A program made the position numbers and the translations under genes. 64,000 nt of DNA, taken from the NCBI GenBank assembly GCA_964016885.1, contig OZ024741.1, forward strand, positions 239,568,001-239,632,000, read 5' to 3'. Source of the DNA: Eledone cirrhosa. Taxonomy: Eukaryota. The stretch's first letter is position 1. Every line of letters starts with the position of its first letter. Below the pieces are notes generated by a model. It saw only the letters and a program-made list of their open reading frames with translations, did not search any database and was not told the origin of the DNA. Shown here piece by piece: positions 4,281 to 64,000 of this stretch.

Positions 4281-6659
4281 CTTTGTAGATTTTTGAAGAG
4301 ATCGATTCATTGTTGATATCTTCCAGTCTTCAGGATAGTAATGGCTTCTAGACTGACTATATCTGTCTGATATCTCTCCTCGATTACCTGACATCACAGA
4401 TACACTGTTGTTACCTTGATAGATCAACTGTCTCATCTCATTACGACATTGGTATGCCTGTTTCTCTTCTGTTGTTCTAGCAGAGTTATTTCTCACATTG
4501 TTACATCTCACAATACACAATGTTATAGAAACCACAATAGCTATAGATACTATCACAGCTGCTACTACAACGATAATCAACAATGTTGCATCTATTGTGT
4601 TATCAGTTGGTACATGGACAGCTGTGAACATTGGTGATGTCTTGTTACTAACAGTCAGTGTTAAAGAGACACTAGTTGTTGCTGACAGAACTGGAGTACC
4701 ACTGTCTTTCACAACAAACTCCAGTTGATATGATCCAGCATCATTTTGGTAAACTGTGCGAGAGTAAGATAAGACACCGGTGAATGAGTCCAGTTTAAAT
4801 AACTGTCTCTCATTACCTGAGAGGATTTCATACCTGAGAAAAGCATTCATGTGACTGTCTATATCAGAGGCTTTCAGAAGTGTGATGTCATTCTTACTTT
4901 GTGGATGATAGTGGACATCAAGAGTGAAAGGGTCAACACTAGGAAATGTAAAATATGGAACATTATCATTTTTATCTAATACTTCCACTTCAACATTCAC
5001 TGTGTTATTTAGAGATGGTGTTCCATTGTCTTTAACTAAAACCTCAAAGTCATAGAAATCTCTGTGTTCTCTGTCTAAAGATTGGTTTGTTGAAATAAAG
5101 CCAGAGTTGATAATCTGGAATGGTAGATGATATTGGTGTTTATTTCTCAGATAATAACTTAATTCACCTCCCTTACCAACATCTGGGTCTGTAGCATTGA
5201 TAAAACCAATAGGGAAATTAGCTTTGTCATTCTCATAGGTAAGGAACTTGAATGTATCTTTGGTAAAGTGTGGTTTTACATCATTCACATCTAACACTTG
5301 TATTGAGAGATCTTTATCAGTTTTCAGAGAAGGTAATCCTTTATCTTGACAGGAGACAGTAAAGTGATAATGTTCCTGTGTCTCTCTGTCTACTGCTTTC
5401 TTTAGAACTATTTTATATTCCTTAGATCCCATTGACTGTAGTTTGAATGTATCATGTTTAATATCACAGCTGACCTCTCCATTGTGTCCAACATCATTAT
5501 CAGTGACCATCACATAAGCAATGAAACTACCAACTTTGATATCTTCCAGAATGGTAGCTGTGTTGTGATTCTCTGTAGAAATATAGTTGACATCAATATT
5601 TGGAGGATTGTTGTGTTGGTTGATAATATTTACAATAACAGTTGCTATGGAGCTAAGAGGAGGACTGCCATTATCTCTGGCTTCTATGAATAATTTAAAA
5701 GATTCTTCCATATCAATTTCTGAAGACTTAGCTAAATATAACTTTCCTGTATTTTCATCTAAATCAAAGTATCTTTTCATTTTCTCTGCAGTTTTCCTTG
5801 CAAAATAGAAAGATATTTTACCATTCCTGCCAATATCTAAATCATTGGCAGATAATGTCACTACTGGAATATTCTTTTTATGGTCATGTTGTATAGAGAC
5901 ATTGTAGATACTTTTGGAAAATTGTGGTTTATTATCATTTTCATCTTTTACAGATATTTTAACATTTAAAATACTTTGTTTTGGTGGAGTTCCTCCATCT
6001 TTAGCAATGACTTCAATATTGTAACTGTCTTTCTTTTCTCGGTCTAATTTATCTTCTAAAATAATACCTATTGTTGATATTTCATCAGTTTCTTTGGAAA
6101 CTGATAAAGAAAAATTTCCATTATGCTTTTTTAATTCATATGTAATTAAGCTGTTCTCATACCCCACATCTTTGTCAATGGCGCTGGGAATGGGTCTCTT
6201 CAAACCCTTACCATCTCCATCCCTGAAATACACAGTGATTTCTTTCTCAGGAAACTCAGGTTGGTGGTCATTGATGTCTTCTATTATGACTTTAATTTTT
6301 AATATCTTCATAAATGTCTTGGATTTGTGAACAGCAACTTTAATTATTTCAAAACATTCTTTCTCATAACTACACACAGACTCAGCATCCAATGTCTGTA
6401 CAGTGTACAGTTTACCAGTTTTCGTCACATTAAACAATTGTTCTCCTTTTTGTTGTAGTTGACTAAATGTAATTAAATCCTTATTCTTTAAGGAGTTATC
6501 TGATGTCTGTAAGTCAGTAGCAATGTCCCCTACATAAGTATAGGGAATACTCTCTTCTTTAACATGGTATGTGATATGTTCACTTAAATAACAGTGGAAT
6601 AAAGTCAGTAAAATACACAGAAATAACATCTCTGCTCTTGATGTTAATACAGAGTCCAT
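4281..6659 (-). CDS. Pcdh: Protocadherin gene A, large coding exon (signal peptide, EC1-EC6, TM, proximal cytoplasmic tail)
   Basis: 805-aa ORF with six cadherin repeats (DINDHQPEF, LDRE, DENDNKP, DVNDVKP, DKNDN), the EC1 C-X5-C loop (CSYEKEC) and a TM helix LLIIVVVAAVIVSIAIVVSITLCIV. Similarity among paralogues stops exactly at KSTK|GTAAA (phase-0 donor, exon end 4281). Acceptor TTTCAG| upstream at 6685. Confidence 0.96.
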
Positions 6660-6840
6660 GGAAAATGATTGCTTAAATATTCAATCTGAAACAAACAAAA
6701 ATTATTTATCATACCTCAATTAACTGTTTGTAAAATAAATATATTCAAAAATTATTTATCATATTGATGAGCTATTGTCATATTTGCATAGAGAGAAATT
6801 GTATTATACCTCAAGTAACTGTTTGTAAAATAAATATATT

Positions 6841-6930
6841 TGTTTCTACGTTTGGCACAAGGCCAGCAATTACCCAGTGCATTACTGGTACTTTATTTTA
6901 TCGACCCCGTAAGGATGAAAGGCAAAGTTA
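6841..6930 (-). mobile_element. 5'-truncated Nin/Deu-domain SINE (duplicated copy at ~13999-14088)
   Basis: 3' half of the SINE flanked by TSD AAAATAAATATATT. Confidence 0.8.
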
Positions 6931-8951
6931 AAAATAAATATATTAATCAATGAAAGTGATTGTACAAAATTTCAATATTTGTATTCTTATTTATGGATAT
7001 AAACAAGTCACAATTTTGTGGTCTTTCTATCATGACATTCGCAGTACATATGGTGTGTAGTTTCAGATAAGAAGTCTCTTGTAAACATAACATGTGTAAT
7101 TCCTAAGGTAGATTACTTTGTGTCATAAATATAAGATAGCCCTATTATGAGACAGGTGATAGCTACATCACATCAGATTTAGATGAATTTCTGCAGATTG
7201 TTTAATTAAACTTCAGTGTAGCTTATTTATATTTTATATAGGAATTGAAAATTGGTTGTAATCCAGAAAATTGTTAAAACGTAAACAACTCAGAGGGAAA
7301 CAAGTAGGAAGTTATGAATTATCTCCCTTATATATACTACAAAGTACACCTAAATTATGTTTAACAGAACAAAAATCTACAGGAATATCTAAGTCACTAT
7401 CTTTCCATTGATATTGATGTATTACTATTAATAAAGTTAGATTTCTATTTTAAACTGAAAAAAAAATATTCTAAATTGTGAACATTTATATTCAATAAAA
7501 TTATAATCTTAACATCTTGGATATAATAATAATAATTAAATTATTGTGTACAGTGCTCAGGTGCACTACAACTCATCAAGGAATTCTTTAAAACAATATC
7601 AATTACCACTTGACTCCTCTATTTACTACATAAACAGCTTCCTTATGTGTCAAAAACCACTTTTATATAACAGAGGTTCATTAGATTAAAATCTAACAAT
7701 TAGCTGAAACATTTTAATTTTACATATAAAATCCAAATATATTTTTTGCATAAATATCAAACTAATTTTAAATCATACCACCTAGTGCTAGATATATTTA
7801 CTGAGAATAAATAACTAGATAATAAGCATTTGTTTTCTATAGTTGAAAATCGTTGTAAAAGGAGGGAAAAATCTAAAACAAATTCTAAAACAAATTTTTT
7901 TATGACTTATTCTGAAGTAGAAATAAAATATTTGGTACCATCTTTTTAAGTCATACTGTTATTTAGTCATGTAGATGAATATTTTTTACATAAAACCTAC
8001 CAGATTGATGTTATTTAACCCGATGTAAGATCCTATCTAGCAGACATTATCAAAAGCATTCCAGTCAAGACCACAACCTCTATTTTTCCAAATATAGTTC
8101 CTTTGTGTTACAAAAGGAAATATATGACATCTTACAGTAGTATCGAAATAGATAACAGGCCATAATTAATATATCTATATTCTTTACAAAGATTTAAGAC
8201 TACAGATTCCTCATTTTTTACTGAATTAATGAATATTAATTTTTGTAATGTAATTGGTAATTATTCAAATATACTTCTGACATGTTACCATAAAAGTATA
8301 AAGATACATATTTTGTTGAAACAAATCATACACAAATATATGTAAGGCAAATTTGTAAATTTTAACAAGTAAAAGTAATTTATATAAAAGAAACTATTAA
8401 CACTAATTTTCACATGATATTATAGCAATCAGTAGACATATACAAAAAATAATGATTTACACACGTTCATAGATTTTACATATACACAGTTATTTCAGAT
8501 ATGAAAATACTAATATTTTATAACAAATTTTCTTATTTATAAAGAATATTTAGGTAAAACCTATATTATTGAATGTATTTCAATGATATTCTAGTTCAAT
8601 ATTTAGTATGTAATAAGACCATACAATGTCAGACTGAATAATTTAGTAAAAATATATAATGATGAGCTATGTTAAAATATGATAAACAAGATAAATATAG
8701 TAAACAAATCAAAGATGACAGCAAATATTTTCAGAAGTATGTTATATTAAACTATAATCCAACATATATTCCTCTCTCTCACTGTTTCTTACAAAATAGT
8801 TGATAGCCATGTTGGTAAAGAAGACATTCAATGAGAACTAGCACAGATCTAATATGGCCACCATTACAATATATTTTGATGTTATAATATACTATGTATG
8901 AAGTGATTATTTTACATGACTTGATAAATAATAAGCAATGATAAAACTTAC

Positions 8952-9450
8952 ATTCATTGTGTAAAATCCTTTGTTATAAACTGTGAGTTGGTCCCAATGT
9001 TCTGTTAATGGTTGTCTGTGTCACTGCTGCTATGGTGTGACAATGGCTTCATGTTGATGGAATAGTGTTGGTAGTGAGTCAGTGGGAACCAGCAGTTCCT
9101 CTCAGTCTTCTGTGTATGTGTGATGTTTACTGAGTGTGAGTGTGAGTGTGTGTGTGAGAGAGAGAGGGGTGGGGGAGGGTGATGCTTACTTCAGCCTCAC
9201 TCAGACTAGATGTGTTTCCCCTCACAGAAAAGAGGGAGAGAGAGAGAAGACACAATATCAGCTCCACTAACAGTCAGCCAAATGTCTATATAATAATATG
9301 TCTGGTGTAGAGAGACTGACATAGAAATACTTAGAAGAGAGAGGTTATATTAACAAAATATGGCTGATGTTGTTAATGTGTAATATGTAATATAAATACA
9401 AAATTAATAATAATAGTTAGTGTGTGTCTGGCTTAATTATAAACTAACTT
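8952..9450 (-). promoter_or_regulatory. Promoter and non-coding first exon (~8952-9268) of gene A
   Basis: Same cassette; |GTAAGT donor at 8952 pairs with the acceptor at 6685. Confidence 0.7.
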
Positions 9451-9563
9451 TGCCACAGAAGATATATTTCAGAAAATTTATAGATGTTATATTACCAATA
9501 TCAAATTTATTTTCTGAAATAACAAAATTTACAATATCATATATTTATTATTTATTAGCAGGG

Positions 9564-9754
9564 TGGTGGATTATCTGTCATTAGAGTGTGAGACAAATGC
9601 TTAGCAGTATTTAGTCTGACTCTATACAGTCTGAGTTGAAATCATGCCTTTCATCTTCTGAGGTTGATAAAATAAAGTAACAATCAAGTACCATCGTCAA
9701 TATACTCAAATTGTCCTTCACCTAAATTACTGATTTTGTGCCGGAATCATTATC
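9564..9754 (+). mobile_element. Old Nin/Deu-domain SINE (duplicated copy at ~16671-16863)
   Basis: Degenerate match (GAGTTGAAATC, GCCTTTCATCTTCTGAGGTTGATAAAATAAAGTA); TSD TATTAGCAGGG. Confidence 0.72.
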
Positions 9755-9965
9755 TATTAGCAGGGAAAACAGTCATTAAATGATGATGATAATTCAATCC
9801 ATATTTTCAAATTTAAATTGTATTTCCTGAAGATTTATTACTATTCTAGACACTTTATATTAAATTCCCCATAATTATATCATTTAACTAACATATTTCT
9901 TTTGTTTTAAATATTGTGTTACTGTTGAAGGTGATATTTCTGTTGTGTTAACTTCTCAGTCTGAC

Positions 9966-10084
9966 TTAACTAGCAACAACATCTGGTGTTGAAGGTAACT
10001 GTCTCTCTGGAGGTTTCACATATCTGTCTTGGTAATGGTCTCTCTCATTGTTGCTTGACACATCAGGTGGGACACCATAGATAC
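9966..10084 (-). CDS. Pcdh: Gene B terminal coding exon
   Basis: TTTCAG| acceptor, 119 nt to TAA. Confidence 0.88.
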
Positions 10085-10281
10085 CTGAAAGAAATAATTC
10101 AATTCAACTTACCACATAGTTCACATAGACAATAGATATCTTCTGACATTAATAATCCATCTCTTGTCCAAAATGAAAATTATTAAAAAGGTTCTTTTTG
10201 ACCATCCCTAAAATTCTTCAAAATTATAAACATAAATTATTATAATGATAATAATAAACATGGAAAATGAAATGTTTTTAC

Positions 10282-10432
10282 CTGACATTGCCGGTATTTC
10301 TTCATACTGTCTACTTGACCTTTCACTCCAGCACTGTCCACTACTCTTACGACTAGTCAGTGTATCAGTGGGATAGTTAGACGATGGTCTGTTGTCTCCA
10401 TAAGATGTCACCTCTATAGGCTGACTGTATTT
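10282..10432 (-). CDS. Pcdh: Gene B cytoplasmic exon (151 nt)
   Basis: CAGCAG| acceptor, |GTAAAA donor, paralogous to 3410-3560. Confidence 0.9.
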
Positions 10433-10739
10433 CTGCTGTAAAGTTAGTTAAAACAGATTGTAAAGGTATTTATAATATTGGATATGAAATGTATGCAATA
10501 TCTAGGTAAAAATCAGTACATGTTTACTGTTGAAATATGGTACAACCATCTACAAAAATATCAATTGTCTTTTACAAATGTTCCATTGATTTCACTACAT
10601 TTTTGTCAAATTTCTGCAGGACAATTCTCAAGGGGATTTCAAACTTCCAACTTAAATCCTTCCTTCCAATCCTACCACACAAAATGGATTCATTATACAT
10701 TAGTCAAAGTCTTATGTATTGCAAATAATTATTTCATAG

Positions 10740-10908
10740 CACACTGTAAGTGTGGTTGGTGTTAGCAAGGGCATTCAGCCATAGAAAACCAGCCAGAAAC
10801 ACCCCTATATGAGCGAAACACTGTCACCCAACAACTTGCCTCAAAATAGGATCCACCTAACCCATGCTAGTGTGGAAGATATACGTTAATCGATGATGAT
10901 GATGATGA
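10740..10908 (+). mobile_element. RTE LINE/SINE 3'-tail fragment (duplicated at ~17858-18026)
   Basis: GGTTGGTGTTAGCAAGGGCAT...CCCATGCTAGTGTGGAAGATATACGTTAATC(GAT)n matches the LINE 3' end. Confidence 0.75.
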
Positions 10909-11488
10909 CTTTTAATGAATAAAGGTTCACATGGTCTTTTGACCTCACCGTTAATGGTGATAATATAAATTTATATTGTGCATGAGTTTGCAGTGCAAGG
11001 TAGGAATGACAAGAGGTACAGAATTGAGGAGATTTGTCTTCTGGATAACAGGTTAGAAGAATCTGAATAGTACAAAGTAGAGAGGTTCCACAATTTTAGA
11101 CAACAACCTATTGAGAAATAAATTGCATTCTGCAATGTATGAAATGTATGCAATATCTAGATTTAAATTAGTCATGTTAACTGTTGAAATATGGTACAAC
11201 TATCACCAAAAATATCAAATGTCTTTTACAAAAATGGTGGTAGCCTTGTTAAACATTTATTTACCAACAAATAGCTTACAATTAGCAAACAGCAGTAATT
11301 CATGGATTAACTCACATTTAAAACAAACAAAATAGAATATTTATTTCTATGTCACTATTATTTCTAACAAGACATATTCTATTAAAAACTCTGGAGAAAT
11401 AAATATTAGCCTAAATTGGTAATTTAAATAGTAACAAAGAGAATAAACATTATTTAACAGCAGATAAAAGATATTGAATAGACTTTAC

Positions 11489-13867
11489 CTTTGTAGATTT
11501 TTGAAGAGATCTGTTCATTGTTGATGGTTTCCAGTCTTCAGGATAGTTATGGCTTCTAGACTGACTATATCTGTCTGATATCTCTCCTTGATTACCTGAC
11601 ATCACAGATACACTGTTGTTACCTTGATAGATCAACTGTCTCATCTCATTACGACATTGGTATGCCTGTTTCTCTTCTGTTGTTCTAGCCGAGTTATTTC
11701 TCACATTGTTACATCTCACAATACACAATGTTATAGAAACCACAATAGCTATAGATACTATCACAGCTGCTACTACAATGATAATCAACAATGTTGCATC
11801 TATTGTGTTATCAGTTGGTACATGGACAGCTGTGAACATTGGTGATGTCTTGTTACTAACAGTCAATGTTAAAGAGACACTAGTTGTTGCTGACAGAACT
11901 GGAGTACCACTGTCTTTCACAACAAACTCCAGTTGATATGATCCAGCATCATTTTGGTAAACTGTACGAGAGTAAGATAAGACACCAGTGAATGAGTCCA
12001 GTTTAAATAATTGTTTCTCATTACCTGAAAGGATTTCATACCTGAGAAAGGCATTCATGTGACTGTCTATATCAGAGGCTTTCAGAAGTGTGATGTCATT
12101 CTTACTTTGTGGATGATAGTGGACATCAAGAGTGAAAGGGTCAACACTAGGAAATGTAAAATATGGAGCATTATCATTTTTATCTAATACTTCCACTTCA
12201 ACATTCACTGTGTTATTTAGAGATGGTGTTCCATTGTCTTTGACTAAAACCTCAAAGTCATAGAAATCTCTGTGTTCCCTGTCTAAAGATTGGTTTGTTG
12301 AAATAAAACCAGAGTTGATAATCTGGAATGGTAGACGATATTGGTGTTTATTTCTCAGATAATAACTTAATTCACCTCCCTTACCAACATCTGGGTCTGT
12401 AGCATTGATAAAACCAATAGGGAAATTAGCTTTGTCATTCTCATAGGTAAGGAACTTGAATGTATCTTTGGTAAAATGTGGTTTTACATCATTTACATCT
12501 AACACTTGTATTGAGAGATCTTTATCAGTTTTCAGAGAAGGTAATCCTTTATCTTGACAGGAGAGAGTGAAGTGATAATGTTCCTGTGTCTCTCTGTCTA
12601 CTGCTTTCTTTAGAACTATTTTATATTCCTTAGATCCCATTGACTGTAGTTTGAATGTATCATGTTTGATATTACAGCTGACCTCTCCATTGTGTCCAAC
12701 ATCATTGTCAGTGACCATCACATAAGCAATGAAACTACCAACTTTGATATCTTCCAGAATGGTAGCTGTGTTGTGATTCTGTGTAGAAATATAGTTGACA
12801 TCAATATTTAGAGGATTGTTGTGTTGGTTGATAACATTAACAATAACAGTTGCTATAGAACTAAGAGGCGGACTGCCATTATCTCTGGCTTCTATGTATA
12901 ATTTAAAAGCTACTTCTGACTTAATTTCTGATGATTTGGCTAAATATAATTTTCCGGTATTTTCATCTAAATCAAAGAATCTTTTCATTTTTTCTGAAGT
13001 TGTCCTTGCAAAATAGTAAGATATTTTACCATTCCTACCAATATCTAAATCTTTGGCAAATAATGTCACTACTGGAATATTCTTTTTATGTTTATGTTCT
13101 AAGGAAACATTGTAGATACTTTTGGAAAATTCTGGTTTATTATCATTTTCATCTTCTACAGATATTTTAACATTTAAAATACTTTGTTTTGGTGGAGTTC
13201 CTCCATCTTTAGCAATGACGTCAATATTGTAATTGTCTTTGTTTTCTCTGTCTAATTTATTTTCTAAAATAATTTCTAATGTTGATATTCCACCAGCTTC
13301 CTTAGAAACACTTAGTGAAAATTGTCCATCATCTTTCAGTTCATATTTAATAAATCTGTTTTGATACCCAACATCTTTATCCACAGCATTGGGTATTGCT
13401 CTCTTGGTGTTTTTACCATCAGTTTCAGAAAACTGAATATTGACTTGTTCAGTTGGAAACTCAGGTTGGTGGTCATTGATGTCTTCTATTATGACTTTAA
13501 TTTTTAATATCTTCATAAATGTCTTGGATTTGTGAACAGCAACTTTAATTATTTCAAAACATTCTTTCTCATAACTACACACAGACTCAGCATCCAATGT
13601 CTGAACAGTGTACAGTTTACCTGTTTTCGTCACATTAAACAATTGTTCTCCTTTTTGTTGTAGTTGACTGAATGTAATTAAATCCTTATTCTTTAAGAAG
13701 GAGCTATCTGATGTCTGTAAGTCAGTAGCAATGTCCCCTACATAAGTATAGGGAATACTCTCTTCTTTAACATGGTATTTGATATGTTCACTTAAATAAC
13801 AGTGGAATAAAGTCAGTAAAATACACAGAAATAACATCTCTGCTCTTGATGTCAATACAGAGTCCAT
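11489..13867 (-). CDS. Pcdh: Protocadherin gene B, large coding exon
   Basis: 805-aa ORF with the same domain layout; donor after KSTK at 11489; acceptor at 13893. Confidence 0.96.
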
Positions 13868-16062
13868 GGAAAATTACTGTTTAAATATTCAATCTGAAAC
13901 AAACAAAAATTATTTATCATATTGATGAGGTATTGTCATATTTGCATAGAGAGAAATTGTATTATACCTCAATTAACTGTTTGTAAAATAAATATATTTG
14001 TTTCTACGTTTGGCACAAGGCCAGCAATTACCCAGTGCATTACTGGTACTTTATTTTATCGACCCCGTAAGGATGAAAGGCAAAGTTAAAGATAAATATA
14101 TTAATCAATGAAAGTGATTGTACAAAATTTCAATATTTGTATTCTTATTTATGGATATAAACAAGTCACAATTTTGTGGTCTTTCTATCATGACATTCGC
14201 AGTACATATGGTGTATAGTTTTAGATAAGAAGTCTCTTGTAAACATAACGTGTGTAATTCCTAAGGTAGATTACTTTATTGTGTCATAAATATAAGATAG
14301 CCATATTCTGAGCCAGGTGATAGCTACATCACATCAGATTTAGATGAATTTATGCAGATTGTTTAATTAAACTACAGCGTAGCTTATTTATATTTTATAT
14401 AGGAATTGAAAATTGGTTGTAATCCAGAAAATTGTTAAAATGTAAACAACTCAGAGGGAAACAAGTAGGAAGTTATGAATTATCTCCCTTATATATACTA
14501 CAAAGTACACCTAAATTATGTTTAACAAAACAAAAATCTACAGGAATATCTTAGTCACTATCTTTCCATTGATATTGATGTATTACTATTAATAACATTA
14601 GATTTCTATTTTAAACTGAAAAAAAAAATATTCTAAATTGTGAACATTTATATTCAATAAAATTATAATCTTAATATCTTGGATATCTCCTTGAATAGGA
14701 ATACTTTAAAACAATATCAATTATCACTTGACTCCTCTATTTACTACATAAACAGCTTCCTTATGTGTCAAAAACCACTTTTATATAACAGCTTCATTAG
14801 ATTAAAATCTAACAATTAGCTGAAACATTTTAATTTTACATATAAAATCCCAATATATTTTTTGCATAAATAAACTAATTTTAAATCATACCATCTAGTG
14901 CTAGATATATTTACTGAAAATAAATAATTAGATAATAAGCATTTGTTTTCTATAGTTGAAAATCGATGTAAAAATAGGAAAAAATCTAAAACAAATTCTA
15001 AAACAAATTTTTTTATGACTTATTCTGAAGTAGAAATAAAATATTTGGTACCATCTTTTTAAGTCATACTGTTATTTAGTCATGTAGATGAATATTTTTT
15101 ACATAAAACCTACCAGATTGATGTTATTTAACCCGATGTAAGATCCTATCTAGCAGACATTATCAAAAGCATTCCAGTCAAGACCACAACCTCTATTTTT
15201 CCAAATATAGTTCCTTTGTGTTACAAAAGGAAATATATGACATCTTACAGTAGTATCGAAATAGATAACAGGCCATAATTAATATATCTATATTCTTTAC
15301 AAAGATTTAAGACTACAGATTCCTCATTTTTTTACTGAATTAATGAATATTAATTTTTGTAATGTAATTGGTAATTATTCAAATATACTTCTGACATGTT
15401 ACCATAAAAATATAAAGATACATATTTTGTTGAAACAAATCATACACAAATATATGTAAGGCAAATTTGTAAATTTTAACAAGTAATTTATATAAAAAAA
15501 CTATTAACACTAATGTTCACATGATATTATAGCAATCAGTAGACATATACAAAAAATAATGATTTACACACATTCATAGATTTTACATATACACAGTTAT
15601 TTCAGATATGAAAATACTAATATTTTATAACAAATTTTCTTATCTATCAAGAATATTTAGGTAAAACCTATATTATTGAATGTATTTCAATAATATTCTA
15701 GTTCAATATTTAGTATGTAATAAGACCATACAATGTCAGACTGAATAATTTAGTAAAAATATATAATGATGAGTTATGTTAAAATATGATAAACAAGATA
15801 AATATAGTAAACAAATCAAAGATGACAGCAAATATTTTCAGAAGTATGTTATATAAAACTATAATTCAACATATATTCCTCTCTCTCACTGTTTCTTACA
15901 AAATACTTGATAGCCATGTTGGTAAAGAAGACATTCAATGAGAACTAACACAGATCTAATATGGCCACCATTACAATGTTATATTTTCATGTTATAATAC
16001 AGCTATATATGAAGTCATTATTTTACATGACTTGATAAATAATAAGCAATGATAAAACTTAC

Positions 16063-16560
16063 ATTCATTGTGTAAAATCCTTTGTTATAAACTGAGTTGG
16101 TCCCAATGTTCTGTTGTTAATGGTTGTCTGTGTCACTGCTGCTATGGTGTGACAATGGCTTCATGTTGATGGAATAGTGTTGGTAGTGAGTCAGTGGGAA
16201 CCAGCAGTTCCTCTCAGTCTTCTGTGTGTGTGATGTTTACTGAGTGTGAGTGTGTGTGTGTGTGAGAGAGAGAGAGGTGGGGGAGGGTGATGCTTACTTC
16301 AGCCTCACTCAGACTAGATGTGTTTCCCCTCACAGAAAAGAGGGAGAGAGAGAGAAGACACAATATCAGCTCCACTAACAGTCAGCCAAATGTCTATATA
16401 ATAATATGTCTGGTGTAGAGAGACTGACATAGAAATACTTAGAAGAGAGAGGTTATATTAACAAAATATGGCTGATGTTGTTAATGTGTAATATGTAATA
16501 TAAATACAAAATTAATAATAATAGTTAGTGTGTGTCTGGCTTAATTATAAACTAACTTTG
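16063..16560 (-). promoter_or_regulatory. Promoter and non-coding first exon (~16063-16376) of gene B
   Basis: Same cassette, nearly identical to that of gene A. Confidence 0.7.
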
Positions 16561-17073
16561 CCACAGAAGATATATTTCAGAAAATTTATAGATGTTATAT
16601 TACCAATATCAAATTTATTTTCTGAAATAACAAAATTTACAATATCATATATTTATTATTTATTAGCAGGGTGGTGGATTATCTGTCATTAGAGTGTGAG
16701 ACAAATGCTTAGCAGTATTTAGTCTGACTCTATACAGTCTGAGTTGAAATCATGCCTTTCATCTTCTGAGGTTGATAAAATAAAGTAACAATCAAGTACC
16801 ATCGTCAATATACTCAAATTGCCCTTCACCTAAATTACTGATTTTGTGCCGGAATCATTATCTATTAGCAGAGAAAACAGTCATTAAATGATGATGATAA
16901 TTCAATCCATATTTTCAAATTTAAATTGTATTTCCTGAAGATTTATTACTATTCTAGACACTTTATATTAAATTCCCCATAATTATATCATTTAACTAAC
17001 ATATTTCTGTTGTTTTAAATATTGTGTTACTGTTGAAGGTGATATTTCTGTTGTGTTACTTTCTCAGTCTGAC

Positions 17074-17192
17074 TTAACTGGCAACAACATCTGGTGTTGA
17101 AGGTAACTGTCTCTCTGGAGGTTTCACATATCTGTCTTGGTAATGGTCTCTCTCATTGTTGCTTGACACATCAGGTGGGACACCATAGATAC
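17074..17192 (-). CDS. Pcdh: Gene C terminal coding exon
   Basis: TTTCAG| acceptor, 119 nt to TAA. Confidence 0.88.
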
Positions 17193-17399
17193 CTGAAAGA
17201 TATAATTCAATTCAACTTACCACATAGTTCACATAGACAATAGATATCTTCTGACATTAATAATCCATCTCTTATCCAGTCTGATATAAAATGACAATTA
17301 TTAAAAAGGTTCTTTTTGACCATCCCTAAAATTCTTCAAAATTATAAACATAAATTATTATAATGATAATAATAAACATGGAAAATGAAATGTTTTTAC

Positions 17400-27217: not shown

Positions 27218-27235
27218 TGAATTTAATAACAGACA

Positions 27236-27584: not shown

Positions 27585-27612
27585 CAGACAAAGATAAATA
27601 AAATTGCTTTAC

Positions 27613-49694: not shown

Positions 49695-51954
49695 CTCTGC
49701 TCTTGATGTTAATACAATATCCAGGAGAAATTACAGCTTCAAATATTCAATCTGAAACAAACAAAAATGATTTATCATATTGATGAGCTATTGTCATATT
49801 TGCATCTGAAAGAGAAACAAATATTAATATATTACATCTTGTCTTGCTTTTTTTCATGAAATTCTCAGATTAAATTCAACATCTTGTACTTAGGAAATAT
49901 CTGCTGTATCCTAAACATATTCAGGAAAGACAGACCAGTATGTACACTTTTCTTAAGCAGTAAACGTTTTGCTGTCTGGGACATATCGAACACAAGATTT
50001 GGCATCTGGAAGAAGGTTCATAGACTAGCCCAAGCTGTGCTATCATGATGTTTGCATATAGACACTCAATATTAATGCAGAATTCTGGGAGAGCCTTTCA
50101 GATGACCAGAACCCTGAACAGCTAACTAAAGATAGGAGAAACAAAGCTATTGGATGAAGCAGAAGAAAATTGCACAGCAGTAACAACATATAAATTAAAC
50201 ACATAGGAATGACCTAAACATCAAAACTGTTACTGCTGCAAATAACACTGTTTTAAAAAAAAAAAACAAAGAAAAAAATATTTTTAAAATCTATATAAAG
50301 CCCATTTCTTTTCTTTTCCTGAAAATAAAGAGTATTCTAAGTAAGATGATATCTAAATAATACTGGATTCAACTAACATATGTTACATCTATTTTGTGAT
50401 ATTAAAATATGGGTTCTATTTCATTGGTATCAAATTTTAAGTTTGGAAAACTATTAAAATATAGATATTACATAGGAGGACGTTTTGAGTTATCTCTCTT
50501 GAACAAGAAATGATTTAAGATATTACAGAATTTTCAACAAAATTAAAACATTTTGTAAAGATGTATAAATCAACACTATAAAGATATTAACCAAGAATAG
50601 TAATAATGCTGTCATATAAATCACCTACTGTGTATTCTGTAAAACTGAACGGAATTACAGATTGAAAATTTCTCAAGTATTACAATCTATATTAAACAGT
50701 ATTGACAAGATATATATTTACTAACTGCTATTGATATATTTAGAAATATATTCTAACCTGAATCACATTTTATATTGTTAATATTACCACTTTAATAATT
50801 CTTCTCTCAGAAATAACATAACCTGTAGTTAAAATAACGTTATAATTCTAAAATCTTGGATATCACTTTAAAAACTTTAAATTATTTAGACTGCTTTCAC
50901 ATGGTTCTTCTATTTGTTACATCAGCAACTTAAGCCTTTTTTATTTTGTTTATTTGACAAATTATAATTAAATTATGAAACAACCAATGACAATTGTTTT
51001 TTTTTTATTAAAGGGCTTCAGTGCAATAAATTCTGGAAGTATTAATCTGAATACATTAAATTTAACACTTCAGCAGAATATATATCTTGTGTTTAAATAT
51101 CAAACTAATTTTTTAGAAAGTCATCAAATTAACAGATTTCCATTTAACTGCTTTTTTACAGTTGAGAAATAAATAAAATTAAGTTAAAGCCACAATTAGT
51201 ACATAAATATTGTTCATACAGATTATGGCTACAGATTCCTTATATCTCATCTTCCTAAAGGTTATAAAACTTATAATAGAGAATTATAGAAATATCATGG
51301 ATATATTTGGCCTGTTATCTAAAATATATTAATGATTGTATATTTAAAACACTAAAGATATATCATATTTGTAAATATAATTTCAAAAATAAAATGCTGA
51401 AATCAGATTAATAGGACATATTTTCTATAGACATCAATAAACATATACACACATTATGTATATATATAACTGTGTATTTGTGTGTGGGTGTATACCCATA
51501 CAGAATTCTGTACATAATATCATAAATTATTTGATTGCCTGATATTATTTACATAAAACCTATATTACAGTATATATTTCAATGATATTTTCGTTCAATA
51601 TTTAGTATGTACTAAGACCATACAATGCATGACTGAATAATTCAGTAAAAATATATAATGATGTATTATTTGAAAATGTAATACACAAGATAAATATTGT
51701 AAATACAACAAAGATGACTGCAAATATTTTCAGAAATATATTATATAAAACTACAATTCAACATATATTCCTCTCTCTCACTGTTTCTTACAAAATACTT
51801 GATAGCCATGTTGGTAAAGAAGACATTCAATGAGAACTAACACGGATCTAATATGGCCACCATTACAATGTTATATTTTCATGTTAGAATATAGCTATAT
51901 ATGAAGTTATTATTTTACATGACTGGATAAATAATATAAAATAATAATACGTAC

Positions 51955-52891: not shown

Positions 52892-53010
52892 TTAACTGGC
52901 AACAACATCTGGTGTTGAAGGTAACTGTCTCTCTGGAGGTTTCACATATCTGTCTTGGTAATGGTCTCTCTCATTGTTGCTTGACACATCAGGTGGGACA
53001 CCATAGATTC
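52892..53010 (-). CDS. Pcdh: Gene G terminal coding exon
   Basis: TTTCAG| acceptor, 119 nt to TAA. Confidence 0.88.
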
Positions 53011-53354
53011 CTGAAACAAGTACATCAACACAACTTACCATTTAGTTCACATAGATAGACAATGATTATTTTATTGATAATAATCATCAATTGTTTATCC
53101 ACAACATCCACTGAACTAAGAGAGAAAATAACAATCATAATAGAATTCATACAAGATCATATATTTACATCTTTACAATCTTAATAAACCACTAATTAGT
53201 TAAATAAAATAATATCTTTAGTAATTTAAAATCAATATTAAATTACTTGAACTTTTTGTCTTGAATTGACAACAAACATAGTGCTTTGTTTAGGACTTAC
53301 TCTGATATGTAACACTGAGAAAGACCATAAATATTTATGAAGATATTGTTTTAC

Positions 53355-53502
53355 CTGACATTGCTGGTATTTCTTCATACTGTCTACTTGACCTTTCACT
53401 CCAACACTGTCCACTCTTATGACTGGTCAATGTATCAGTGGGATAGTTAGAAGATGGTCTGTCATCTCCATAAGATGTCACCTCTATTGGTTGACTGTAT
53501 TT
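53355..53502 (-). CDS. Pcdh: Gene G cytoplasmic exon (148 nt; one Ser codon deleted)
   Basis: Canonical boundaries; 3-nt in-frame deletion relative to paralogues. Confidence 0.89.
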
Positions 53503-53529
53503 CTGATGGAAAATATAGTTACAAGATAA

Positions 53530-53665
53530 AGTATAAAGATATCATTTATGACAATGTACCTAAAATATACTAAATGTCCTAGATATTGATAGGTACATGT
53601 ATCTATCAATATCTAGGACATTTAGTATATTTTAGGTACACTGTCGTAAATGATATTTTTATACT
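53530..53665. repeat. 136-bp near-perfect palindrome
   Basis: Two 68-bp arms, no spacer (centre TACA|TGTA), 4 transition mismatches. Confidence 0.93.
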
Positions 53666-54043
53666 CTACTGTTAAAATACTGGACCATTATCTACTAAAA
53701 CATCAATTGTATAAAACTTTCTGTATGACCACTTTCAATCATACCACAGAAAATGTATCCAGTACAGGTTCCAAATCATTATTTGCTATCATACTCCAAG
53801 GTATTTGTTTTTTAGGTCTACCTTTATTGGTGTTACATTCATATTGTGTGAGTTTAGGGTACACACTTGTAGTTATTCCAGGCCAATAATTTGGAAGGTT
53901 TCTTTATAGAAAGACAATTTACAAAACTATATGAATTCCACAATGTTAGCTAAGATCATACTGACATATAATATGACAGCTTGGCAAAAAACAATGTGAT
54001 TCAATACAGCCTTGAATTTCCTGGTATTTGGCTTTTTAGATAA

Positions 54044-54900
54044 ATGAGGGTCAGCTGAAAGGTTCATTGGCTGACTAAGATACTCTCATGGAGTGTGACC
54101 AAATGAGTTTTATTTTTCAACATTAACAGCAGATATGACATTATCACTGCGAAACTGGTTCTCAGCCAAGTGTTTTTCGTGTCAGGGAACAGATGATAAT
54201 CAGATGGGCAAAATGAGAAGAATAAGGAGGGTGATCAATTAGTTCAAAGCCAGTCATGCACAGCAGCCATTGAAACCAAGGACTTGTGTTGGAGCATTGT
54301 CCTAATAAAGCAAGACTCCTTTCATCAGATTTCCTGGGCATATGGTCTTGATAGACTTTCATAACTGCCTTAGCGAGATGGCATAATACTCTCCATTGAT
54401 GGTGTGGCTCTTTTGAAGATGGCCAATAAACATGGATTGCCAATAAACATGAATAGCCAATAAACATGGATTGTCTCTTTGTCTGACTCAAAGTGAAGAA
54501 CCCAACACTCATCCTGGGTTAGGAAACATTCAAAGAAACCAGCTGGATCTGTCTCAAATAATGTCAGATTTCCCTGTGATGTGATCAGCTTGGCGTGCTT
54601 TTGATCAGGTGTCAGAAAACATGGCACTCATCAAGCAGAATCCTTCGTCATACCAAGTTCTTTGTGTAGAATACTCTCAACTCTCACACGGGACACACTA
54701 ATAGCATTGGGTATTTGATTAATAGTCAACTGCTCTCATCCATCACCATGCAGTAAACACGATCAATGTTTTCCTCAGTTGCAGGACTTCTAGAACTCGA
54801 GTCATTTTGAAAGCTCTCCCTTCCCCACCTAAATTCAGTCGCCCACTTTTACACTGTTGATAAAGCTGGAGCATTATCCCTAATGTAGCAACCATTAATT
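54044..54900 (-). mobile_element. Decayed Tc1/mariner (mariner-type) DNA transposon in intron 2 of gene G
   Basis: Transposase remnants APALSTV.KWATEF, TEENIDRV, FLTPDQK, FLTQDECWVLHF, DHPPYS; mariner-like TIR start GAGGGTCAGCTGAAA at ~54046. Confidence 0.88.
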
Positions 54901-55142
54901 TTAACATGTAAACAAGTGTAAATTTTGATTTATCTTAGATTTCCAAAAACAGACAATATATTTTTATCTCCAGATCATAATGCTTTGTGTTTGAAGACAT
55001 TTAAATATTAAATCGAATTTATTATTAATAGTAATTTAAATCAGTAATTTAAACATTAATTTGGTGATCAAACACATTCAGTTTTATCATGCTTAATTAA
55101 ACATTATTTACTAACAGATAGAAAATATACAATAGAATTTAC

Positions 55143-57497
55143 CTTTGTGGATTTCTGAAGAGATCGGTTCATTGTTGGTGTCTTCCAGTCTTCAGCATAG
55201 TAATGACTTCTAGACTGACTATATCTGTCTGATATCTCTCCTCGATTACCTGACATCACAGATACACTGTTGTTACCTTGATAGATCAACTGTCTCATCT
55301 CATTACGACATTGGTATGCCTGTTTCTCTTCTGTTGTTCTAGCTGAGTTATTTCTTACATTGTTACATCTCACAATACACAATGTTATAGAAACCACAAT
55401 AGCTATAGATATTATCACAGCTGCTACTACAATGATAATCAACAATGTTGCATCTATTGTGTTATCAGTTGGTACATGGACAGCTGTGAACATTGGTGAT
55501 GTCTTGTTACTAACAGTCAGTGTTAAAGAGACACTAGTTGTTGCTGACAGAACTGGAGTACCACTGTCTTTCACAACAAACTCCAGTTGATATGATCCAG
55601 CATCATTTTGGTAAACTGTGCGAGAGTAAGATAAGACACCAGTGAATGAGTCCAGTTTAAATAACTGTCTCTCATTACCTGAGAGGATTTCATACCTCAG
55701 AAAAGCATTCATGTGACTGTCTAGATCAGAGGCTTTCAGAAGTGTTATGTCATTCTTACTTTGTGGATGATAGTGGACATCAAGAGTGAAAGGGTCAACA
55801 CTAGGAAATGTAAAATATGGAGCATTATCATTTTTATCTAATACTTCCACTTCAACATTCACTGTGTTATTTAGAGATGGTGTTCCATTGTCTTTGACAA
55901 AAACCTCAAAGTCATAGAAATCTCTGTGTTCTCTGTCTAAAGATTGGTTTGTTGAAATAAAGCCAGAGTTGATAATCTGGAATGGTAGACGATATTGGTG
56001 TTTATTTCTCAGATGATAACTTAATTCACCTCCCTTACCAACATCTGGGTCTGTAGCATTGATAAAACCAATAGGGAAATTAGCTTTGTCATTCTCATAG
56101 GTAAGGAACTTGAATGTATCTTTGGTAAAGTGTGGTTTTACATCATTCACATCTAAGACTTGTATTGAGAGATCTTTATCAGTTTTGAGAGGAGGTAATC
56201 CTTTATCTTGACAAGAGACAGTAAAGTGATAATGTTCCTGTGTCTCTCTGTCTACTGCTTTCTTTAGAACTATTTTATATTCCTTAGATCCCATTGACTG
56301 TAGTTTGAATGTATCATGTTTGATATTACAGCTGACCTCTCCATTGTGTCCAACATCATTGTCAGTGACCATCACATAAGCAATGAAACTACCAACTTTG
56401 ATATCTTCCAGAATGGTAGCTGTGTTGTGATTCTGTGTAGAAATATAGTTGACATCAATATTTGGAGGATTGTTTTGTTGGTTGATAACATTAACCATAA
56501 CTGTTGCTATGGCACTGAGAGGAGGAATTCCATTATCTTTAGCTTCAATATACAATTTAAAAAACTCTTCCATATCAATTTCTGAAGATTTAGCTAAATA
56601 CAACTTTCCAGTGTTTTCATCTAAATTGAAGTGTTTCTTCAGCTTTTCAACAGTTTTTCTAGCAAAATAGAAAGATATTTTACCATTCCTGCCAATATCT
56701 AAATCATTGGCAGATAATGTCACTACTGGAATATTCTTTTTATGTTTATGTTCAATAGAGACATTGTAGATACTTTGAGAGAATTGCGGTCTGTTATCAT
56801 TTTCATCTTCTACAGATATTTTAACATTTAAAATACTTTGTTTTGGTGGAGTTCCTCCATCTTTAGCGATGACTTCAATATTGTAGCTGTCTTTCTTTTC
56901 CCTGTCTAATTTACCATCTAAGATTATTTCTAATGTTGATATTCCATCAGTTTGTTTGGAAACTGATAAAGAAAAATATTCATTATGCTTGTTTAATGCA
57001 TATGTAATTAAGCTGTTCTCATATCCAACATCTTTGTCAATAGCACTGGGAATGGGTCTCTTCAAACCTTTCCCATCTCCATCCCTGAAATATAGAGTGA
57101 TGTCTTTCTGAAGAAACTCAGGTTGGTGGTCATTGATGTCTTCTATTATGACTTTAATTTTTAATATCTTCATAAATGTCTTGAATTTGTGAACAGCAAC
57201 TTTAACTATTTCAAAACATTCTTTCTCATAACTACACACAGACTCAGCATCCAATGTCTGAACAGTGTACAGTTTACCTGTTTTCGTCACATTGAACAAT
57301 TGTTCTCCCTTTTGTTGTAGTTGACTAAATGTAATTAAATCCTTATTCTTTAAGAAGGAGCTATCTGATGTCTGTAAGTCAGTAGCAATGTCCCCTATAT
57401 ATGTATAGGGATTACTCTCTTCTTTAACATGGTATATAATATGTTCACTCAGATAACAGTGGAAGAAAGTCAGTAAAATACACAGAAATAATAACAT
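55143..57497 (-). CDS. Pcdh: Protocadherin gene G, large coding exon
   Basis: 797-aa ORF; donor at 55143; acceptor TTGCAG| at 57554. Confidence 0.96.
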
Positions 57498-58389
57498 CTC
57501 TGCTCTTGATGTTAATACAATATCCAGGAGAAATTACAGCTTCAAATATTCAATCTGCAACAGAAACAATTTCAATATATTAACGGTGTCTCATATTAAG
57601 TCTTGCTTTTTTTCATGAACTACTTATTGATTAAACTTAACATCTTGTACTTCAGAAATATCAGCTGTATCCTTAATATATTCCGGAAAGACAGAGTGAC
57701 AATTGCAGTGATTCTCTCCTGCACTGAACAGTATGTACATCTTTCTCAAGCAGTGATGGTTGTGCTGTCTGGGCCACATCCAAAACATGATGAGCTTGTA
57801 TCTGAGAGAAGGCTCATTGACCAGTCCAACCTATTTTATAATGTCTGCATGAGAAACATATAGACACTCAATATTTTGGGAGAGAATTTCAGATGACCAG
57901 AACCTTGAAAGAGGTAACTGAAAATAGCTATCGGACGATGCCGAAGAAAGTAGCACAGCAGTAACAACAGATGAATTAACACACATAGATATGATCTATG
58001 CATCGAAAACTGTCACTGCTGCATTAGATTTTTCGGCTACAACCAGCACTGCTTTTAAAGAAAAAAGTTTTTTTTATTAAATCTATATAAATGACGTCTT
58101 TTTATTTTTTTTTTTTTATAAAGAATATTTTAAGTAAGATGATATCTAAGTAATACTAGATTCAACTAACATATATTACTTCTATTTTATATGATATTAA
58201 AATATAAGTTCCATCTAATTGGTAACATATTTTAATGGGAAATATTAAATTGGGAAAGTATTAAAATACATTGCATTGGATGACGTTTTGAGTTATCTCT
58301 CTTGAACACGAAATAATTTCAAATATTACACAATTTTCAACAAAACAAACATCTTATAAAGGTAATCACAACAAAGATGTTAACGAATA

Positions 58390-61120: not shown

Positions 61121-61239
61121 TTAACTGGCAACAACATCTGGTGTTGAAGGTAACTGTCTCTCTGGAGGTTTCACATATCTGTCTTGGTAATGGTCTCTCT
61201 CATTGTTGCTTGACACATCAGGTGGGACACCATAGATTC
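61121..61239 (-). CDS. Pcdh: Gene H terminal coding exon
   Basis: TTTCAG| acceptor, 119 nt to TAA. Confidence 0.88.
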
Positions 61240-61609
61240 CTGAAACAAGTACATCAACACAACATATTTAGTTCACATAGACAGAAAATAGGTATTTACT
61301 GACATTAGTCATCAATATTTTGTCAATTACATCCAATTAACTAAGATAGAAAATGACAATCATAATAGAATTAATATATCTTTACAATCTTAATAAACAA
61401 CTGATAAGTTAAATAAAACAATATACTTGGTAATTTAAATAATTTAGATATTTTAGATCAATATTAAATTCTTTGTACTTACAGTGTTTGAATTGCCAAA
61501 ATGGGTAAAACTAATATATTTCAGAAGTCATTAAAACACTTTGTTTAGGACTTACTCTGATATGTAACAAAGAGAAAGATGACAAAAATTAATGAAGATA
61601 TTGTTTTAC

Positions 61610-61760
61610 CTGACATTGCTGGTATTTCTTCATACTGTCTACTTGACCTTTCACTCCAGCACTGGCCACTGCTCTTATGACTGGTCAATGTATCAGTGGG
61701 ATAGTTAGAAGATGGTCTGTTGTCCCCATAAGATGTCACCTCTATAGGTTGGCTATATTT
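61610..61760 (-). CDS. Pcdh: Gene H cytoplasmic exon (151 nt)
   Basis: CAGCAG| acceptor, |GTAAAA donor. Confidence 0.9.
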
Positions 61761-62422
61761 CTGCTGTAAAATATAGTTACAATATAGTATAAAGATTTTC
61801 TGAATGTGGACTTCAAATACATTCGATTTCTAGCTAATAATGGGTACTGTTGGAATATTTGACTATTATCAACAAAAGCATCAATTGTATAGATCCTTCC
61901 TACCAAACCACTTTCAATCATACCAGAAAGAATGTATAAGACATTGTAAGAATTCATTGAATAGCTTACTCTGAAGAAGAAATGTATACATGATTTTTCG
62001 AGACATGTCTTTACTGGTGATAGTATAAGTATATATTAAGGTGGAAGGATTAGTCTTAATAGGCAGGAATGTTGACAAGTTGGACTACAGGTGTACAACT
62101 TACAAGAGACGTCTGAAATTACACAACGTTAGGTTCTTCCAAAACTATTCCTAAGATATTATTCACTAATGGTAAATTAGTCTGGCTAAAAATTCAATAT
62201 GATGTACTGCAATATATGTATGCATTTTTTATTGTTTCATTTAGCTTTCTTGATACATATACCAATATGCAAACAGCAGTAAATTGTACATTTATCACAA
62301 ATTTGATTTTAAAAAAGAATACATTTTTCATCGTGATATCATATTTTGGGGGGAAACAAACATTCTATACAAAAAACAATGGGAAATTATACAGTAAACT
62401 GAGAAAGTATAAAATAGTTTAC

Positions 62423-64000
62423 CTTTGTGGATTTCTGAAGAGATCTGTTCATTGTTGATGTCTTCCACTCTTCAGGATAGTAATGACTTCTAGACTGACT
62501 ATATCTGTCTGATATCTCTCCTCGATTACCTGACATCACAGATACACTGTTGTTACCTTGATAGATCAACTGTCTCATCTCATTACGACATTGGTATGCC
62601 TGTTTCTCTTCTGTTGTTCTAGCTGAGTTATTTCTTACATTGTTACATCTCACAATACACAATGTTATAGAAACCACAATAGCTATAGATACTATCACAG
62701 CTGCTACTACAATGATAATCAACAATGTTGCATCTATTGTGTTATCAGTTGGTACATGGACAGCTGTGAACATTGGTGATGTCTTGTTACTAACAGTCAG
62801 TGTTAAAGAGACACTAGTTGCTGCTGACAGAACTGGAGTACCACTGTCTTTCACAACAAACTCCAGTTGATATGATCCTGCATCATTTTGGTAAACTGTG
62901 CGAGAGTAAGATAAGACACCAGTGAATGAGTCCAGTTTAAATAACTGTCTCTCATTACCTGAAAGGATTTCATACCTGAGAAAAGCATTCATGTGACTGT
63001 CTATATCAGAGGCTTTCAGAAGTGTTATGTCATTCTTACTTTGTGGATGATAGTGGACATCAAGAGTGAAAGGGTCAACACTAGGAAATGTAAAATATGG
63101 AACATTATCATTTTTATCTAATACTTCCACTTCAACATTCACTGTGTTATTTAGAGATGGTGTTCCATTGTCTTTGACAAAAACCTCAAAGTCATAGAAA
63201 TCTCTGTGTTCTCTGTCTAAAGACTGGTTTGTTGAAATAAAGCCAGAGTTGATAATCTGGAATGGTAGACGATATTGGTGTTTATTTCTCAGATAATAAC
63301 TTAATTCACCTCCCTTACCAACATCTGGGTCTGTAGCATTGATAAAACCAATAGGGAAATTAGCTTTGTCATTTTCATAGGTAAGGAACTTGAATGTATC
63401 TTTGGTAAAGTGTGGTTTTACATCATTCACATCTAACACTTGTATTGAGAGATCTTTATCAGTTTTGAGAGAAGGTAATCCTTTATCTTGACAAGAGACA
63501 GTAAAGTGATAATGTTCCTGTGTCTCTCTGTCTACTGCTTTCTTTAGAACTATTTTATATTCCTTAGATCCCATTGATTGGAGTTTGAATGTATCATGTT
63601 TGATATTACAGCTGACCTCTCCATTGTGTCCAACATCATTGTCAGTGACCATCACATAAGCAATGAAACTACCAACTTTGATATCTTCCAGAATGGTAGC
63701 TGTGTTGTGAATCTCTGTAGAAATATAGTTGACATCAATATTTGGAGGATTGTTGTGTTGGTTGATAACCTTAACCATAACAGTTGCTATGGAACTGAGA
63801 GGAGGGCTCCCTCCATCTTTTGCTTCAATGTATAATTTTAACGTGCTTTTAGTGTCAATTTCTAATGGTTTTATTAAGAATATTTTTCCAGTATTTTCAT
63901 CAACACTAAAGTATCCTTTCATCTTCTCTTCAGTTTTTGGACTAAAATAAAAAGATGTTTTACCATTCCTACCAATATCTAAATCATTGGCAGATAACGT
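62423..64000 (-). CDS. Pcdh: Protocadherin gene H, large coding exon (5' part outside window; visible from mid-EC3)
   Basis: Frame is open to the window edge (TLSANDLDIGRNGKTSFYFSPKTEEKM...); donor at 62423. Confidence 0.94.

Follow-up and report, generated by a model that had tools for sequence, protein, structure and literature searches.

How do the copies of a tandem gene array, almost identical over most of their length, come to differ from one another within one region, and is that diversity tied to what the encoded proteins bind? The question is raised by a protocadherin array of the octopod Eledone cirrhosa, seen in a stretch of 64,000 nucleotides (assembly GCA_964016885.1, contig OZ024741.1, positions 239,568,001 to 239,632,000 of the forward strand). 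Within this stretch, hereafter the window, in whose numbering positions are given unless stated otherwise, eight long minus-strand frames (genes A to H) encode protocadherins with six extracellular cadherin repeats (EC1 to EC6). They represent 8 of the 32 core genes of the array (g02-g33), g01-g41 being the large exons that were extracted from this genome (G000) and aligned. We put at roughly 70 % the probability that these genes, tandem protocadherins duplicated as whole genes, carry in EC2-EC3 a patchwork of old variants moved by germline gene conversion and crossover, with selection likely retaining the variants and purging combinations that break self-binding. A preliminary description of the window, which had read EC2-EC3 as cassettes reshuffled in the germline between invariant anchors, was right about the germline exchange and wrong about the fixed anchors.

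Discordant histories within EC2-EC3

Among the core paralogues, EC1 and EC4 are 96-98 % identical, as compared to 77 % for EC2-EC3, of which the 32 genes carry 31 distinct sequences; any trans specificity would therefore rest almost wholly on EC2-EC3. The proportion of synonymous differences (pS) is 0.05-0.08 in EC1, EC4-6 and the tail and 0.27-0.53 in the variable blocks of EC2-EC3. In gene A (minus strand throughout), block 1 (6177-6251; EC2 strands A-B) is the most divergent (pS 0.53; proportion of nonsynonymous differences, pN, 0.26), and its variants are common to several species. The DKDVGY junction (6159-6176) leads to block 2 (6048-6158; EC2 BC helix and strands C-D-E), followed by the homogenised EC2 strands F-G (LDRE..KISV anchor, 5949-6047), block 3 (5880-5948; EC2-EC3 linker and EC3 strand A), the homogenised EC3 strand B (KKNIPVV..GRNG anchor, 5820-5879) and blocks 4-5 (5613-5819; EC3 strand C, CD loop, strands D-E-F, FG loop and strand G). 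The strands of blocks 1, 2 and 4-5 and of the two homogenised anchors are those of a monomer model (predicted local distance difference test, pLDDT, 85).

Direct comparison of the genes bears out the sharing that had been described. Every motif listed as shared is present in the genes named, and EC2 of gene H, beyond the window, carries two of them. In block 1, C and F, reported as alike and then diverging, have 2 differences over 75 nt, and in block 2 they have 41 over 111; for A and E, said to be of opposite EC2 type yet alike downstream, the counts are 33 of 75 nt in block 1 and 3 of 69 in block 3, and for A and B 35 of 75 nt in block 1. The likeness claimed between F and H is seen at sites diagnostic for C or H, where F is C-like at 31 of the first 32 and H-like at 51 of the next 52, these runs including a shared 3-nt gap. 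The switch lies between 49236 and 49224 (minus strand), where 11 nt are common to both donors, and gives F a C-type block 1 and H-type blocks 2-4.

Site compatibility drops with distance, and a test of the pairwise homoplasy index (PHI) type gave z values of −17.5 for the eight genes (−7.4 on third positions only) and −12.9 for the 32 genes (on third positions −5.3 at a window of 30 and only −1.8 at a window of 100). Separate block trees, a check that the preliminary description had proposed, are incongruent: in approximately unbiased (AU) tests on 32 genes, every block rejected the concatenated tree as well as the trees of the four other blocks (p ≤ 0.0013), while on eight genes block 2 is compatible with the tree of block 4 and vice versa (p 0.05 and 0.16). 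The AU trees are fitted to the same data, and distance-matrix simulations on one tree provide the fairer control. Here, distances in block 1 and block 2 correlate at 0.08, as compared to 0.70 when simulated without recombination; block 1 against the other blocks gives rho values from −0.06 to 0.08, and one-tree simulations with the same site rates 0.62-0.73. For the block pairs 2-3 and 4-5, the correlations stay within the range simulated without recombination.

The gain of a copying model was 3463, against 758-1063 in 12 simulations without recombination. For placing individual switches the Li-Stephens copying model was rejected, with 67-79 'strict' switches in simulations without recombination against 94 observed. 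With a stringent triplet test, 23 of 30 genes showed switches, in 48 groups overall, as compared to 0, 0, 0 and 2 groups in the four simulations on which it was calibrated (0-2 false calls); these groups are not independent events, 10 of them falling at one codon. A GENECONV-like search, another check proposed earlier, did return significant runs in 32 of 496 pairs, but mostly within low-rate anchors, and was set aside as evidence. Neighbouring EC2-EC3 blocks have discordant histories.

In all these analyses g01 and g34-g41 served as outgroups only, and the near-duplicates g26 and g27 were excluded from the switch, Mantel and linkage counts. Dropped before alignment were loci L031, L032 and L033 (without the end motif), one L036 gene (without the start motif) and the L040 fragment.

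Variants older than the species

For comparison, 26 EC2-EC3 units were taken from Octopus sinensis, 8 from O. vulgaris, 4 from O. bimaculoides and 19 from Argonauta; diverged units of these species were excluded from the cross-species distance, block-coupling and covariation tests and included in the 98-unit pair count given below. The nearest relatives are O. sinensis proteins (86-89 % identity), with Argonauta hians at 82-84 %. The same motif variants occur in the Octopus and Argonauta units in other combinations, which implies that the variants predate the species splits and were reassorted in each lineage, in the germline.

The flanking domains behave differently: EC1, EC4-6 and the tail have been homogenised within each species. 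Over EC4-6, protein distance is 0.022 within Eledone and 0.010 within Argonauta, as compared to 0.073 between them, while block 1 stands at 0.418 within Eledone and 0.411 to Argonauta. Argonauta block 1 is nearer than the median paralogue for 32 of 32 genes, Argonauta EC4-6 for 0 of 32 (11 Argonauta rows), and a statistic like the fixation index (Fst), taken between Eledone and Argonauta, is 0.78 for EC4-6, which sorts by species, and 0.07 for block 1, which does not. Blocks 1 and 4 are uncoupled in all three species tested, and blocks 2 and 4 are coupled in three (rho 0.19, 0.47 and 0.49; p 0.02, 0.002 and 0.002). Block 1 thus assorts independently, but block combination is not free overall.

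A predicted interface and a coupled residue pair

In vertebrate protocadherins (Pcdhs), according to the passages available from two papers, EC1:EC4 contributes affinity and EC2:EC3 specificity, an EC3 Phe-X10-Phe loop wedges onto the EC2 DE loop and strand B (PMC5001838), and charge-matched pairs lie across the interface (PMC5106212). By homology, the array proteins may bind homophilically via an antiparallel EC2:EC3 interface, and a new mosaic would then be a new recognition code. At 14 vertebrate trans-contact positions, mapped approximately and by hand, mean entropy is 1.14 bits as compared to a background of 0.59 (p 0.0015).

The top long-range covarying pair consists of residue 145 (EC2) and residue 264 (EC3), 357 nt apart, with a z of 17.8 (next pair 12.1). 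Of 98 genes, drawn from five genomes, 97 have exactly one Lys or Arg at these two positions taken together. In Eledone, 21 of 30 genes carry S-K and 9 carry R-T; within the window (minus strand), R-T occurs in B (13001-13357, with R145 at 13355-13357 and T264 at 13001-13003), C (20453-20455 and 20096-20098) and E (37761-37763 and 37404-37406), and S-K in A (6150-6152 and 5793-5795), D, F, G and H. In the Argonauta core genes Lys or Arg is paired with Gln or Glu, and in diverged neighbours Arg or Lys with Met, Leu, Thr or Ala. Linkage to R145 reaches an r2 of 1.00 at codon 264 only and is at most 0.74 at any other site; this is the sole pair with r2 > 0.99 among 10188 long-range allele pairs. 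Overall, covariation declines with distance, reaches its lowest level at 61-100 residues and is higher once more at separations of 101-140 (mean z 0.53 vs. 1.45). Of the independent pairs tested on the EC2-EC3 tree, six changed in the same direction, none in the opposite direction, and one did not change (p 0.03). In neutral conversion simulations, 52 of 1500 samples contained a perfect pair, and 4 of 1500 contained one that spanned at least 340 nt. Cadherin topology presumably places residue 145 at the N-terminal end of EC2 and residue 264 at the C-terminal end of EC3, so that the two could meet only in an antiparallel dimer, in which residue 145 would face residue 264 of the partner. As a pattern in sequences, the coupling fits, without proving, an antiparallel EC2:EC3 contact under selection.

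Several observations weigh against a role of selection on binding or against parts of the reading given at the outset. The pair is the top of about 5400 column pairs, and paralogues are not independent; trees of single halves give only 1-3 supported pairs (p ≥ 0.5) and lack power. One O. sinensis gene has R-K, and 54 more distant protocadherins all lack a basic residue at 145, with 16 of them having a non-basic residue at 264 as well, which shows that K264 is not a general requirement. Residue 145 aligns with S138 of gammaA9, a residue absent from the vertebrate contacts that the available literature passages list; only 264 adjoins named contacts. The ratio pN/pS in the blocks is about 0.2-0.5, without a direct signal of positive selection. 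The decay of background linkage is reproduced by neutral conversion models that combine tracts of 60-400 nt with a degree of whole-gene replacement (150-250 nt being about the best, a rough and model-dependent estimate), and the patchwork alone therefore needs no selection. Finally, within g22-g27 (G000:C2:239437000-239498500) spacers and gene halves are duplicated at 99.1-99.4 %, which could stem from unequal crossovers of very recent date or from haplotypes duplicated in the assembly. Taken further, the data would describe an octopod repertoire of interface strands and loops that predates the split of Argonauta and Octopus and is reassorted by germline micro-conversion into new neuronal self-recognition codes, with selection locking residue 145 to residue 264 where the two touch across an antiparallel dimer; this fuller account we offer tentatively, with the odds somewhat against it.

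An alternative is that everything described is a neutral by-product: conversion would homogenise DNA of high homology and passively shuffle the diverged islands, with the combinations and the 145/264 coupling reflecting shared descent rather than binding. The pN/pS below 1 and the match of background linkage to neutral simulations agree with this, 20 of 1088 matched neutral samples produced a perfect long-range pair, and the codons of R145 and T264 are the same as in the diverged neighbours g39-g41, so that the two may have been inherited together. We nevertheless regard it as rather unlikely, since the variants persist across Argonauta and Octopus while the flanking domains were homogenised, variability is enriched at the mapped interface positions, the coupling recurs with different residues in Argonauta, and 32 of 32 core exons have open frames.

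Anchors, a hotspot and the route of exchange

In programmed cassette conversion, of which immunoglobulin (Ig) pseudogenes, pilin and variant surface glycoproteins (VSG) are the types, silent donor cassettes, fixed exchange boundaries and somatic rearrangement are characteristic features. A system of this kind, or any in which exchange begins and ends at fixed invariant anchors, including a somatic version, is very unlikely in the array. The preliminary description had called the anchor DNA nearly invariant, which holds for three anchors (pS 0.08-0.21) but not for DKDVGY, conserved as protein only (pN 0.04, pS 0.60; pS 0.54-0.60 over its six codons), its pS being no lower than that of the blocks. 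Anchor peptides are intact in 24-29 of the 32 genes; the anchors are mostly protein-constrained motifs and strands. Discrete cassettes were not found either, as 33 of the 48 stringent switch groups lie wholly inside blocks (84 of 150 with uniform synthetic breakpoints) and gene H changes type within block 1. Silent donor copies are likewise missing among the 32 genes: besides the open frames of the core exons, all eight window genes have tail exons. Variants common to the assemblies of different species also speak against a system of this kind.

What survives of anchor-primed exchange is one place, the sole switch hotspot. The DKDVGY junction holds 0.20 of the stringent switch mass (0.037 expected), with 13 of 48 switch groups overlapping it and 24 of 48 within alignment codons 153-178, but priming at anchors is not supported as a general rule, since the anchors jointly account for 0.22 of the mass as compared to 0.325 expected. 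The LDRE..KISV anchor (0.00 vs. 0.17) and the KKNIP..GRNG anchor (0.02 vs. 0.12) are depleted, although detection is weak at these two, since shuffling also affects the short block that separates them. The hotspot likely arises because block 1 types differ at more than 40 % of bases, so that a swap of these deeply diverged types would have to resolve where homology resumes. Recent crossovers that can be located fall in EC4-EC5, away from the anchors.

Short conversion tracts and flank-exchanging unequal crossovers are both visible, which, together with the variants common to other species, upholds the proposed germline conversion and unequal crossover. As to the former, the pairs g24/g28 and g04/H are close except for dense differences at alignment codons ~139-182, and g23 and g26 differ by five adjacent bases in two codons, both states of which are present in at least six other genes. 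As to crossovers, g25 resembles g27 to codon 537 and thereafter mostly g22, including an intron that is 99.3 % identical, and g26 resembles g23 to codon 410 and thereafter mostly g24. Duplicated whole spacers end inside the large exon. The B-to-A spacer (7579-11139, including the tail exons of B) matches the C-to-B spacer (14697-18257) with 97.5 % identity along 3579 nt, a trace of unequal crossover, and the regions upstream of B and A (13904-14686 and 6746-7524) are 97.2 % identical; with its A-like upstream flank, C-like start of EC2 and C-like intron, gene B is likely an old A/C crossover product. In g28 and g29 (G000:C2:239427201-239434804) only ~540 nt upstream and EC1 are alike, at 98 %, with divergence thereafter, possibly a conversion tract of ~0.9 kb that crosses the acceptor in the 5' untranslated region (5'UTR).

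Ordinary germline gene conversion and unequal crossover probably moved the old variants between paralogues. Long near-identical DNA in EC1 and from EC4 to the tail would let paralogues mispair; crossovers there would alter the number of genes and exchange entire 5' and 3' halves, and tracts of roughly 50-250 nt would swap strands and loops within EC2-EC3. Selection would likely keep the variants and remove combinations that break self-binding.

That convergent substitution at hypervariable loops mimics recombination is highly improbable: the loops are indeed hypervariable, and the loose copying model gives many false switches without recombination, but the signal holds on third positions, the stringent test stands at 48 against 0-2, and for the strong cases shared synonymous runs such as those of 31 and 51 diagnostic bases in F, with their 3-nt gap, refute it. 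Assembly chimeras among near-identical repeats are scarcely credible as an explanation, for although no contig of a second sample spans the whole of EC2-EC3, its coverage having holes, and the near-identical g25/g27 may be a false duplication, only 11 bases are shared at the F switch, flanks are mostly gene-specific, the annotations of four other species contain a like patchwork, and a 188-nt second-sample contig crosses the F switch with one difference from F (at least nine sites for other genes). This second-sample check concerns gene F only and used contigs of unrecorded kind, in which coverage holes prove nothing; with just 19 letters on the C side and a depth of 2.8, the contig lends weak support to the F mosaic, and the cross-species pattern is the stronger argument.

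Organisation of the array

A search of the Eledone genome with EC2-EC3 returned 32 full-length matches of 80-100 % identity over 0.28 Mb, all on the minus strand, and further diverged neighbours. As in coleoid sub-arrays, these are close paralogues in same-strand tandem, with six cadherin repeats, a transmembrane (TM) segment and a cytoplasmic tail; gene A matches PF08266 and five stretches of PF00028, and the closest PDB sequences are mostly protocadherins. A splice acceptor lies in the 5'UTR ~55 nt ahead of the ATG. Each of the eight window genes is followed by two tail exons of its own, and the array members are whole-gene duplicates that do not share them; the possibility of shared constant exons was rejected on this ground.

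All on the minus strand, gene A (2864-6685) has its large exon at 4281-6685, from the 5'UTR acceptor to the GT donor and encoding EC1-6, the TM segment and part of the tail, and tail exons at ~3408-3563 and 2864-2989. Gene B (9966-13893) has its large exon at 11489-13893 and tail exons at ~10280-10435 and 9966-10091; gene D (24695-30826) starts with ATG at 30826 and has its donor at 28475 and tail exons at ~27611-27766 and 24695-24820. The large exons of C (17074-20992), E (34592-38303), F (45535-49751) and G (52892-57554) lie at 18584-20992, 35892-38303, 47343-49751 and 55143-57554, respectively, each with its own tail exons. Gene H (61121-64000) is cut by the window end, and its EC1 and EC2, beyond 64000, were taken from the flanking locus L004. 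In vertebrate alpha and gamma clusters, promoter choice is stochastic and mediated by conserved CTCF elements. In Eledone, a 12-mer count over 1.5 kb upstream of the 32 genes found no word in more than 11 of them; the true promoters lie beyond the 5'UTR intron and were not located.

The acceptor of the first tail exon is a tandem AG-CAG in B, C, F and H (e. g., 10435, 17553, 46693 and 61763) and has lost its first AG in A, D, E and G (e. g., 3563, 27766, 35210 and 53505); in other species, some proteins have one Gln at this point and others lack it. Tail exons also carry in-frame deletions, of 12 nt in the last exon of E (34595-34705) and of 3 nt in the middle exon of G (53353-53505). A broken retroelement fragment with RVT_1 and PHD matches sits in the last intron of D (26133-26630), and frames resembling a long interspersed nuclear element (LINE) were noted by eye between E and F (40723-43006), three of which, when tested, had no Pfam matches.

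Upstream of the array, L040 and L031 (G000:C2:239672418 and 239738004) are partial or aberrant copies and likely pseudogenes. The diverged flanking genes g01 and g34-g41 (L026-L030, L035-L039) have the homogenised start of EC4 and tail end in common and their own EC1-EC3; g37-g41 apparently form a second small patchwork among themselves.

Relation to known systems

Coleoid sub-arrays have been described as head-to-tail, multi-exon whole-gene duplicates subject to homogenising conversion (Albertin 2022, PMC9068888; Styfhals 2019, PMC6339937; Jiang 2022, PMC9795677), as far as the accessible parts of these papers go. The main text of PMC9795677 contains neither 'conversion' nor 'recombination', and the accessible text of PMC9068888 makes no claim on function. 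The present array agrees in its head-to-tail, multi-exon arrangement without shared constant exons and in a similarity that is put down to duplication and conversion. In the accessible sub-array literature, however, conversion only homogenises, whereas in this array exchange in EC2-EC3 reassorts variants that Argonauta also has, and one residue pair stays coupled. The coleoid arrays and their homogenising conversion are thus already published, while the EC2-EC3 shuffling was not found in literature searches and the 145/264 coupling appears to be new; no work on sub-domain shuffling or binding of cephalopod protocadherins was found, subscription papers and supplements (including that of PMC9068888) lying outside the coverage.

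Vertebrate alpha, beta and gamma Pcdhs likewise carry six EC repeats in one large exon, with a high synonymous divergence (dS) in EC2-EC3 and a low one in EC5-6 (PMC4978886, PMC5106212, PMC5001838, PMC8901172, bioRxiv 10.1101/493106, in the parts available). Their specificity resides in EC2:EC3 with charge-matched pairs, a binding mode that in the octopod array is putative and assigned by analogy with these partly available sources. The two systems are of independent origin, and vertebrate alpha and gamma genes combine variable first exons with shared constant exons, which this array does not have. In vertebrates, EC2 and EC3 are apparently not subject to conversion (PMC4978886, according to the passage available); in this array they are not spared but recombine heavily.

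Old short motifs are also reassorted among copies of recognition proteins elsewhere: the major histocompatibility complex (MHC) has micro-conversion with trans-species motifs, Plasmodium var genes are mosaics, and Dscam exons are born by staggered recombination. Unlike in those systems, the reassortment described here takes place among paralogues of a neural adhesion protein, with both presumed interface halves in one gene. For Dscam, the available part of one study detected no conversion between paralogous exons (PMC3236188).

Implications

Conversion distorts whole-gene trees and dates for arrays of this kind; if the array is the 'beta' group dated to 8-14 million years ago (Ma) from whole-gene distances, an identification of our own, homogenisation would bias that date young. 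The array bears on whether cephalopod protocadherins serve as a neuronal barcode and on how diversity can arise without alternative first exons, and the natural single-block swaps g23/g26, g24/g28, F/C and F/H, together with the predicted contact between residues 145 and 264, make the question of binding testable. If the fuller account offered tentatively above is true, octopus and vertebrates would have evolved the same EC2:EC3 code convergently but would generate its diversity by opposite routes, and the array would provide genetic evidence thereof.

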